Below are positions 14,006-15,542 of a stretch of 23,647 bases of DNA, in pieces (positions within the stretch are counted from its first letter, which is position 1; every line of letters begins with the position of its first letter). The notes under the pieces are model-generated. The model was not told the origin of the DNA. It worked only from the letters and a program-made list of their open reading frames with translations, and did not search any database. Origin of the DNA: a virus (lineage: Duplodnaviria > Heunggongvirae > Uroviricota > Caudoviricetes); IMG/VR virus record IMGVR_UViG_2609460344_000008; one strand, written 5' to 3'. A program made the translations under genes and the position numbers.

Positions 14006-14077
14006 ATTTCCAAGAATTGTATTATAAATTAATCTTTATTGTTTCATGCAAAATTATTTTTTGTCGTCTTAACAGAA

Positions 14078-14147
14078 AGTGTGAAACTTGTCTCTTGTTT
14101 ACATTTTGTTGCATTTAATGAATTGAATTCAGAATTTGTAGTAAAAT
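14078..14147 (+). promoter_or_regulatory. AT-rich porin promoter region with OmpR-box-like elements (TGAAAC at about 14082; GTTTACATTTTG at 14097..14108) and candidate -10 TAAAAT (14142..14147)
   Basis: TTTACATTTTG matches the core of the OmpR site recalled from the ompC promoter; placement upstream of the porin start. Confidence 0.4.
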
Positions 14148-14207
14148 ATTTTAACTGGCGTTCATGACAGCCCAATTCATGAATAGTTCAATTAAAATAA
14201 GGAACAA

Positions 14208-15344
14208 ATGATGAAAAAAATGACAGTGGCACTTTCAGCCGTGGCTGCGGCTGTGATTTTTGCAGCTGGTGCGCAGGCTGCGGAAGTATATAACAAAGAT
14301 AGCAATAAGCTTGATCTGTATGGACGTGTAACGGCACTGCATTATTTCTCCAGCGATAAGGGAAATGATGGTGATCGGACATATGCACGTCTGGGCTTTA
14401 AAGGTGAAACTCAGATTAATGATCAACTGACCGGTTTTGGTCAGTGGGAATATCAGTTCTCTGGTAATAAAACTGAATCAGACGGTGCTGCGGGTAATAA
14501 GACTCGTCTGGCGTTTGCAGGTCTGAAGTTCGGTGACTTTGGCAGCATTGATTATGGTCGTAACTATGGTATTGCGTATGATGTTGGTGCTTATACCGAC
14601 GTATTACCAGAGTTTGGTGGTGATGGCTGGACCCAGACCGATAACTTCATGACTGCCCGTACTTCTGGTGTGGCGACTTACCGTAATACTGATTTCTTTG
14701 GACTTGTTGATGGCCTGAATTTTGCAGCTCAGTATCAGGGCAAGAATGAACGTGATGACCTTCAGGAAGCTAATGGTGATGGTTATGGTTTCTCTGCCAG
14801 TTATGAATATGAAGGTTTTGGTATCGTGGCTGCATATACTAACGCAGACCGTACCAACAATCAGGTGAAAGGCCTGAATGGTACGCAAACAGTAAACGGT
14901 ACTCAAACAGTTGTTGATTCCGGCAGTGTTGCAAAAGGTAAACACGCTGAGATGTGGGGCACCGGGCTTAAATATGATGCCAACAACATTTATCTGGCGA
15001 CAATATATTCTGAGACTCAGAATATGACGACCTTTGGCGACAAAGGGGTGGCAGATAAAGCCCAGAACTTTGAAGCGGTATTACAGTATCAGTTTGATTT
15101 CGGTTTGCGTCCATCTCTGGCGTTCCTGCAGTCTCGTGCTCAGGATATAATTGTCGGTGGTAAAAACTATGGCAATCAGGATCTGGTTAAATATATTGAT
15201 GTGGGTACAACATATTATTTTAATAAAAATATGTCCACCTATGTTGATTATAAAATCAATCTGATTGATGAAAGTCAGTTTACCCAGGATGCAGGTGTTG
15301 CAACGGATAATATCGTTGCCGTTGGTATGACTTATCAGTTCTGA
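14208..15344 (+). CDS. Outer-membrane general porin, OmpC/NmpC/Lc family (phage-borne porin moron)
   Basis: Signal peptide [24 protein letters not shown] then [16 protein letters not shown]...; C-terminal ...VAVGMTYQF beta-barrel terminus; strongly resembles NmpC/Lc porins; AT-rich relative to flanking tail genes. Confidence 0.9.
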
Positions 15345-15367
15345 TGATAACTGGTGAGTGAACAAAT

Positions 15368-15397
15368 ACAGACCATCTGCCCTCACAGATGGTCTGT
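15368..15397 (+). terminator. Hairpin (ACAGACCATCTG-CCCTCA-CAGATGGTCTGT) after the porin gene
   Basis: Perfect 12-bp inverted repeat seen in sequence; no strong T-run. Confidence 0.45.
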
Positions 15398-15505
15398 ATC
15401 GGTGAAAGTATAGTTTTCACCGGTCACTGCAAACGGCAATTAGCCGATTTAATTTTCATTTTATTACCTTCATTGCTTTCGATTTTTAATTGAACTTTTT
15501 TGTTC

Positions 15506-15528
15506 GGGGCGCATTGCGCCCCTTTTTT
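15506..15528 (+). terminator. Intrinsic terminator (GGGGCGC-ATT-GCGCCCC) plus T6 run closing the porin moron
   Basis: Seen in sequence; immediately upstream of the gpL RBS and start. Confidence 0.65.
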
Positions 15529-15542
15529 ATGGGTGGAAGTTT

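Follow-up and report, generated by a model that had tools for sequence, protein, structure and literature searches.

A porin gene at the junction of tail genes M and L in lambdoid Escherichia coli prophages, with a predicted OmpR-type box and a candidate anti-porin RNA in its 3' region

Phage-borne porins such as Lc and NmpC have been known for decades, as has the IpeX RNA. The lc and nmpC genes, which occur in phage PA-2 and in the cryptic prophage DLP12, encode porins of the OmpC superfamily as cargo of lambdoid (pro)phages, and they lie, on the opposite strand, in the interval that separates Q from the lysis genes. Lambdoid phages also carry morons, which in the sense of Hendrix and colleagues are extra genes within a late operon that have their own promoter and terminator; lom and bor, and sodC in tail regions, are genes of this kind. 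IpeX is processed from the transcript of the nmpC/lc phage porin and lowers the level of host OmpC (PMC12197685, PMC3333887). Here we describe a porin cassette in a stretch of 23,647 nucleotides from a tailed phage (Caudoviricetes; IMG/VR record IMGVR_UViG_2609460344_000008), which we refer to as the window and which covers the late region of a lambdoid E. coli prophage from the terminase to the tail-tip protein J. The cassette lies between tail genes M and L. Judging from the evidence below, we lean modestly towards the reading that it is a ‘porin-swap’ moron, in which a replacement porin and a co-transcribed anti-porin RNA have been inserted between these two genes. Such a moron would be analogous to the nmpC/lc-IpeX system, although unrelated to it in sequence and position.

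The porin gene and its site of insertion

The two genes that flank the cassette are M (13664-14005; Pfam Phage_min_tail, 100.4 bits) and L (15543-16241; Phage_tail_L); positions are those of the window, and features are on the plus strand unless stated otherwise. The 1,537 bp between M and L are AT-rich, with a GC content of 0.36-0.46 (14000-15600) versus 0.55-0.63 on both flanks. In the related phage JLK-2012, which is free of the cassette, the stop codon of M overlaps the start codon of L (CTGATG). Therefore, the 1.5-kb cassette is a clean insertion between M and L. Comparison with the same junction showed that the last three codons of M in the window differ from those of cassette-free phages, and that the right end of the cassette has supplied a new Shine-Dalgarno (SD) region and the start codon of L (15531-15545). 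We also found 184 phage records that match the M and L flanks only, and in these records the two flanks are contiguous. The cassette is thus inserted between genes that are adjacent in relatives and deviates from them in composition. The initial annotation of this DNA had proposed a porin moron between M and L in AT-rich DNA, and this is borne out by the flanks, the GC content and the JLK-2012 junction. As with lom, bor and sodC, an extra gene of deviant composition stands between two neighbours and is accompanied by a predicted promoter and a terminator. The cassette differs from these morons in its cargo, which consists of a general porin and a candidate regulatory RNA, and in that its insertion broke the translational coupling of M and L and brought a new SD sequence for L.

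The cassette was present in 111 of 5,426 complete E. coli genomes (~2%), in every case on the chromosome, and many of the isolates that bear it are Shiga-toxin-producing. It was also found in Citrobacter farmeri and in gut-metagenome contigs, and all copies examined share the M-L position. Neither the cassette nor its 3' region gave any match among 50,697 phage records, and we found no account of this cassette in the searchable literature, whether as a porin between tail genes or as a prophage-encoded porin. At least eight sequence variants could be distinguished, and these fall into two major types; where individual copies have to be told apart, they are denoted by L followed by three digits. 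A pattern scan of the genome contigs returned two matches, both of which were due to chance, with no porin nearby, and two of the 11 metagenome matches were likewise due to chance.

The porin gene (14211-15344) is contained in an open frame at 14208-15344. Its start is probably at 14211, because every other allele has a single ATG that aligns with this position and because AAGGA (14199-14203) is better spaced to it; RefSeq has made the same choice. The predicted product of 377 amino acids matched the Pfam model Porin_1 (PF00267) from end to end (1-337 of 337; 474.6 bits, cut-off 23.7) and passed the cut-off of the NCBIfam ‘porin OmpC’ subfamily (NF007841; 504.8 bits, cut-off 484), and its scores against the PhoE and OmpF equivalog models of NCBIfam were under their cut-offs. 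The alignment with solved mature porins in PDB begins at residue 25 (AEVYNK...), and this indicates a signal peptide of 23-24 amino acids. The initial annotation had called a complete porin gene with a signal peptide, and the full-length Porin_1 match and the alignment from residue 25 agree with this call. The protein also contains LPEFGGD in loop 3 and YQF at its C-terminus, and its AlphaFold2 (AF2) model has 16 strands at moderate confidence (predicted local distance difference test score, 68.6). In other words, the signal peptide, the 16-strand barrel, the PEFGG motif of loop 3 and the C-terminal aromatic residue of a general porin are all found.

We next compared the alleles of the porin with each other. 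Amino acid identity is 84-90% (86-90% when aligned columns are compared), far above the identity at third codon positions (57-74%), which shows that this intact general porin gene is under purifying selection. The allelic differences cluster in the predicted surface loops L4, L5, L7 and L8, with a 10-residue indel in L5, and one of the 37 positions of the constriction loop L3 is variable. In the window allele, an 18-nt tandem duplication (14878-14913) produces an NGTQTV repeat in the predicted loop L5, at the point where other alleles have 10 residues inserted.

Every porin from a phage record (Lc of PA-2, NmpC of P7 and 434, and the ‘OmpD’ of many lambdoid phages) was only 68-72% identical to the cassette porin. 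In a neighbour-joining tree, the M-L porins formed a clade of their own, which is sister to the NmpC/Lc/OmpD clade, and OmpC, PhoE and OmpF of E. coli K-12 fell outside both. The initial annotation had assigned the gene to an OmpC/NmpC/Lc family. The assignment to the general OmpC-subfamily porins stands, but orthology with Lc/NmpC was rejected on the grounds of the ~70% identity, the separate clade and the different site in the phage genome. The closest solved structure was OmpK37 (438.5 bits), which scored only marginally above OmpC, PhoE and OmpK36. OmpN/OmpK37, which are quiescent enterobacterial porins, are chromosomal and not phage-borne, and the tree did not include them.

The upstream region and its OmpR-type box

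The porin has a separate, AT-rich upstream regulatory region (14006-14207), as the initial annotation had stated. The identity of this region between alleles is 58-74% overall, and conserved islands (AAAGTG, TTTACATTTTGTTACA, ATTGAA, AATATTTT, GTTCATGACA, GAATAGTTC and AAGGA) stand in diverged DNA. The region contains a predicted box for a response regulator of the OmpR family (14098-14117), which is composed of two 10-bp direct half-sites, TTTACATTTT and GTTGCATTTA. Two motifs had initially been considered OmpR-like, namely TGAAAC (14083-14088) and GTTTACATTTTG (14097-14108). The latter lies within TTTACATTTTGTTGCAT (14098-14114), which shows 2 mismatches of 17 to GTTACATTTTGTTACAT, the OmpR repeat consensus from chromatin immunoprecipitation with exonuclease digestion (ChIP-exo; PMC5438342). 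This is the sole match to the consensus at three or fewer mismatches in the 23.6 kb of the window (0.04 expected), and when the AT-rich upstream region was itself shuffled 20,000 times with its dinucleotides preserved, the probability of two or fewer mismatches was 2.5e-4, so that the resemblance of GTTTACATTTTG was upheld by both the consensus scan and the shuffles. Scored in the same way, the C1 site of ompC and the F1 site of ompF have three mismatches each versus two for the cassette box, and the box is in the same sense orientation as both. The other motif, TGAAAC, was rejected as a second OmpR element; it is conserved in no other allele, and its distance of 26 bp to the half-site of the box does not fit the 10-bp register.

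The box is kept, with 1-4 mismatches, across seven distinct upstream variants whose flanks have drifted to ~60% identity. Its version in L002 (TTTACATTTTGAAACA) is identical over 16 nt to the OmpR site C1 of ompC, and L007 and L008 share another version (TTTACATTTTGTTACAT). A conserved hexamer, TTGAAT/C, follows 5 bp downstream of the box. From the pattern of conservation, we place the predicted core promoter at 14123-14152, with TTGAAT at 14123-14128 and TAAAAT/TATTTT at 14142-14152; ATTGAA and AATATTTT are conserved in all alleles. Relative to this predicted promoter, the box lies at about -37 to -61, and the promoter-proximal OmpR sites of ompC and ompF occupy similar positions. The arrangement of OmpR-regulon promoters, that is, tandem 10-bp half-sites in sense orientation upstream of the -35 region, is therefore found here at the sequence level. 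In contrast to the cassette with its two-mismatch box, the upstream regions of lc/nmpC showed no match to the OmpR consensus within five mismatches. In a gut-metagenome copy (L019, ~4570-4800), unrelated DNA replaces everything upstream of the -10 element, including the OmpR-like box, and this copy represents a natural promoter swap or an insertion.

It had initially been suggested that the porin is wired into EnvZ/OmpR. A near-consensus, conserved and oriented site is indeed predicted, but the RstA box TACATNTNGTTACA matches the same site with one mismatch, which is as good as the match of OmpR. Therefore, the site is not specific to OmpR by sequence. We regard it as possible, but on balance rather unlikely, that the box is used by another regulator of the OmpR/PhoB family, namely RstA (or, with still lower likelihood, CpxR), or is not used at all. 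Expression of the porin would then depend on PhoPQ-RstBA signals (low Mg2+, acid), or H-NS would silence it, instead of the porin following EnvZ/OmpR. By inspection, the RstA box is perfect in L007 and L008, and the cassette is AT-rich foreign DNA, which is the usual substrate of H-NS. However, the OmpR consensus is matched as well as that of RstA, with 1-2 mismatches, and the L002 version, with its 16-nt identity to ompC C1, departs from the RstA box. The CpxR box (GTAAA-N5-GTAAA) had no match at this position with one mismatch. Two further points weigh against the activation by OmpR that we propose below. There is one OmpR-type site here versus three tandem sites at ompC and ompF, and the proposed promoter escaped a simple consensus scan, although this would be expected of an activator-dependent promoter. 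On the other hand, nmpC, itself a phage porin gene, is a known OmpR target (Seo et al., PMC5438342) and thus sets a precedent for OmpR control of a phage porin. OmpR represses nmpC, so that the sign of regulation at the cassette could be either.

The 3' region and its predicted pairing with host porin mRNAs

Downstream of the porin stop codon is a 3' region of 186 nt (15345-15531) with a predicted folding energy of -63.6 kcal/mol (z = -7.3 versus shuffles). This 3' untranslated region (UTR) contains three conserved hairpins (15366-15399, 15400-15422 and 15431-15449), a mini-hairpin downstream, and an intrinsic terminator (15506-15528; GGGGCGC-ATT-GCGCCCC followed by T6), which lies 13 nt before L and has seven G-C pairs in a stem that is invariant in all alleles. 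In six distinct alleles, 99.6% of the cells of the three hairpins and the terminator were paired. Eight compensatory pairs were counted. Shuffling of the columns gave 2.9±1.3 such pairs, with 0 of 500 shuffles reaching eight, and slid controls gave 0-3. Two hairpins had initially been reported downstream of the porin, the second of them a strong intrinsic terminator; the terminator was confirmed, but the hairpin count was not, since three covarying hairpins and the mini-hairpin accompany it.

The region also contains a conserved segment (15446-15505) that is predicted to be single-stranded and that we consider a candidate seed. All eight variants have the same core sequence in this segment, TTATTACCTT (15461-15470). 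Between alleles, the 3' region is 75-85% identical and the unpaired segment 80-85% identical, compared with 57-59% at third codon positions. The unpaired segment is therefore under selection. Taking the alleles together, the 3' region is a structured RNA that is conserved and covaries, with a strong terminator at its end. It also has the sequence features of Hfq-type, trans-acting small RNAs (sRNAs) derived from 3' UTRs, that is, an unstructured conserved seed, a U-rich stretch and a Rho-independent terminator with a U-tail at the 3' end of an mRNA. The initial annotation had missed both this RNA and its complementarity to the start regions of host porins described below. RNAalifold proposed, in addition, a long-range helix between 15350-15365 and 15462-15478, which consists mainly of A-U and G-U pairs with one compensatory pair; it is weakly supported and could mask the seed in the unprocessed mRNA.

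A permissive Rfam scan matched MicF (RF00033) at 15445-15531 with 26.6 bits (E = 0.32) against a gathering score of 79, and gave no MicF match for the L007-type allele. Membership in the MicF family was rejected on both counts. MicF nevertheless resembles the cassette RNA in size (~87 nt) and in its succession of an unstructured 5' part, a U-rich stretch and a terminator. The two RNAs share a 15-nt block with 14 matching positions, UUUAUUACC[G/U]UCAUU, and the UUUAUUACC block of MicF is its part that pairs with the SD region of ompF. However, micF is divergent and located upstream of ompC, whereas the cassette RNA is co-directional with, and downstream of, the phage porin. Furthermore, the best predicted targets of the cassette RNA include ompC and lamB, and MicF matches neither. 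The nmpC/lc system and the cassette both have an RNA in the 3' UTR of a phage porin, but the two RNA regions show no detectable sequence similarity. Homology to IpeX was rejected because the MAFFT alignment was poor and the longest BLAST match was 9 nt. We found no Rfam family for IpeX. The IpeX region downstream of nmpC/lc (L005, 3335-3532, minus strand; L003, 2587-2816) is itself predicted to pair with the start region of ompC (-26.4 kcal/mol), and according to a recent review the action of IpeX does not rely on complementarity alone.

To quantify the complementarity to host mRNAs, the first 34 nt of the RNA (the seed segment) of four alleles were compared with 36-nt target windows, taken at steps of 4 nt from either strand of E. 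coli K-12 sequence totalling 161 kb (80,414 target windows), which includes ompC, ompF, ompA, phoE, lamB, nmpC, malE and malK. We used such windowed scans; pairing with full-length partners gave unrealistic looped structures. The start region of ompC was ranked first of all target windows for the L007 allele (-27.8 kcal/mol) and was the second-best site for L006 (-25.4 kcal/mol), and it was in the top 2e-4 for the window allele and the top 3e-4 for L002 (both -21.5 kcal/mol). The start region of ompF was in the top 1.6e-3 for L007, 7.8e-4 for L006, 9e-4 for the window allele and 9e-5 for L002, with 19-25 predicted base pairs (bp) over the SD sequence and the AUG (-18.9 to -22.3 kcal/mol). Complementarity of the MicF type to the translation initiation region of ompF is thus present. 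The start region of lamB was ranked first of the 80,414 for the window allele (-26.2 kcal/mol) and was in the top 7e-4 for L002, and it was ordinary for L007 and L006; the stretch of the 3' RNA tied to this predicted pairing is UCAUUGCUUU. The predicted duplexes are 19-28 bp long, and each covers the SD sequence and/or the AUG. The remaining candidates examined (ompA, phoE, nmpC, malE and malK) were ordinary in all four alleles, with fractions of 0.01-0.41. As a positive control, MicF against ompF gave -27.4 kcal/mol and a rank of 1.2e-4. Fifteen dinucleotide shuffles of the seed never went beyond -16.4 (ompC), -15.9 (ompF) and -19.9 kcal/mol (lamB). More than 98% of E. coli genomes carry ompC and lamB start regions with at least 99% identity to those used here.

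These data can be set against a simpler explanation, which we consider unlikely, though it deserves attention. The cassette may be a plain porin moron with the porin as its only cargo. The 3' hairpins and the terminator would then serve solely to protect the mRNA from 3' exonucleases and to shield the tail operon. No RNA would act in trans, and the complementarity to porin leaders would be a by-product, for example of an inverted remnant of a porin leader or of a shared AU-rich composition. Over 39 nt, the 3' segment shows 72% complementarity to the leader of the cassette itself, as would be expected of an inverted porin leader. The hairpins have no U-tracts and resemble stabilisers, and the L007-type allele has no Rfam match. 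However, the unpaired segment is conserved well above synonymous sites, and not the hairpins alone. The complementarity to ompC and ompF is extreme among the target windows in all four alleles despite their seed differences and is absent in the 15 shuffles, and the paralogous leaders of phoE and nmpC are unmatched. A third reading, to which we assign a still lower probability, is that the 3' UTR is autoregulatory and pairs with the porin's own 5' UTR and ribosome-binding region, either in cis through a contact between the two UTRs or in trans once it has been processed, to limit or time porin synthesis, with host porins not being the main targets. Thirteen perfect base pairs connect 14185-14197, immediately before the SD sequence of the porin, with 15484-15496 within a 39-nt inverted repeat (14182-14220 / 15461-15499). 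Four of five alleles preserve this pairing by means of wobble pairs or compensating changes, and for these only 1-5 of 200 shuffles were as good. However, its energies (-12 to -18 kcal/mol) are weaker than those for ompC and ompF (-19 to -28 kcal/mol), in L006 it is no better than shuffles (43 of 200), and, since it involves the latter half of the segment, the invariant core TTATTACCTT is left unexplained. An autoregulatory role and a host-targeting role are compatible and do not exclude each other.

Proposed function and wider setting

Based on these comparisons, we propose the following course of events for the porin-swap moron. In the lysogen, the porin would be transcribed from its own promoter, activated by the binding of phosphorylated OmpR, or of a close paralogue (for example, RstA), at about -40 to -60. 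The terminator would halt this transcription, so that the tail genes stay silent, and during lytic growth Q-modified polymerase would pass through the terminator, as in the standard moron model. The 3' UTR would be processed, probably at GA/UUU (the slash marks the cut) just past the third hairpin, or it may be separately transcribed. RNase E prefers RN/WUU, and GA/UUU fits this preference. Processing and separate transcription would both give an RNA of ~85 nt that consists of an unstructured 5' seed, a U-rich stretch and the terminator hairpin. This RNA would pair over the SD and start-codon regions of ompC and ompF, and in the case of the window allele also of lamB, and would thereby repress them. 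As a net result, the major porins and phage receptors of the host would go down and the phage porin would go up, and both the permeability of the cell and the surface that it presents to other phages, to colicins and to antibodies would be remodelled.

Several observations weigh against this proposal. The RNA of ~85 nt is itself a prediction, as are the start of transcription and the processing step. The lamB pairing is specific to the subtype of the window and L031, and the registers on ompC differ between alleles (-13 to +13 in the window type, -37 to -4 in the L007 type), which could reflect retargeting or partly fortuitous complementarity. The shuffled seeds still reached fractions of 1e-2 to 1e-1, which indicates some bias of AU-rich seeds towards AU-rich leaders. 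The background of 161 kb is smaller than a whole genome, and the pairing energies ignore target accessibility and Hfq. Given that the variants represent only two major clades, the compensatory changes in the hairpins correspond to few independent events. Finally, the pairing of the 3' RNA with the porin's own 5' UTR suggests a cis-acting or autoregulatory role instead of, or in addition to, the one proposed.

If the differences among the seeds are taken at face value, a further speculation can be made, which we offer tentatively and hold with less confidence than the porin-swap moron itself. The cassettes may carry a new family of phage 3'-UTR sRNAs with allelic seeds that are aimed at different host receptor mRNAs, namely the ompC leader in one type, the ompC start codon and lamB in another, and ompF in all. 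Such RNAs would silence the major porins and phage receptors of the host while a co-transcribed, OmpR-wired porin with diversified surface loops takes over transport. The cassette would then replace parts of the outer membrane by means of both an RNA and a protein, and this would amount to superinfection exclusion by a retargetable antisense RNA that resides in the tail operon. We also examined the tail-tip protein J of the window in this regard. Its C-terminal 150 amino acids are 43-46% identical to J of both lambda and 434. The receptor of the reference phage lambda is LamB and that of the reference phage 434 is OmpC; therefore, the similar identity to both gives no receptor assignment. The nearest J proteins belong to Shiga toxin (Stx) phages. 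In the L002 prophage (13500-13705), the C-terminus of J is an unrelated tail (...ISDHSLASQSITIWHASDH) beside an IS21 element, and this J may be truncated or disrupted.

The tail cluster of the window contains a second insertion, between L and K (16298-18323), which resembles the ant/sar/arc module of the P22 immI region. It comprises a ClpP-like open reading frame (ORF; 16298-16834, minus strand), an Arc/ribbon-helix-helix ORF (16834-17124, minus strand), the sar antisense RNA (17327-17392, minus strand; Rfam RF00262, 67.6 bits, gathering score 43) and an antirepressor ORF with KilA-N and P22_AR_C domains (17394-18323). In L002 and in L006-L009, K directly follows L. The prophage copy of strain cM8a (L001), which is identical to the window over the cassette, has a sodC moron between I and J (26336-26863), lom-like morons, and a gene for a T-even-type Gp38 adhesin after the side tail fibre (32876-33388). 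The window has no sodC; in it, I ends at 19693 and J starts at 19934.

IpeX is so far a single example, and its mechanism is obscure. The cassette described here would be a second, independent combination of a porin and a 3' RNA module, at another site and with an unrelated RNA, and it comes with explicit base-pairing predictions for ompC, ompF and lamB. If the porin-swap moron is real, then a replacement porin joined to an anti-porin RNA would be a recurrent phage strategy. The near-consensus OmpR/RstA site, in turn, provides a handle on how foreign cargo joins the envelope signalling of the host. Beta-lactams enter the cell mainly through OmpC, OmpF and LamB, and many phages and colicins use these proteins as receptors. 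Given these roles and the carriage of the cassette in about one in fifty complete E. coli genomes, antibiotic permeability, the host range in phage therapy and serology could be affected in the strains that carry it.

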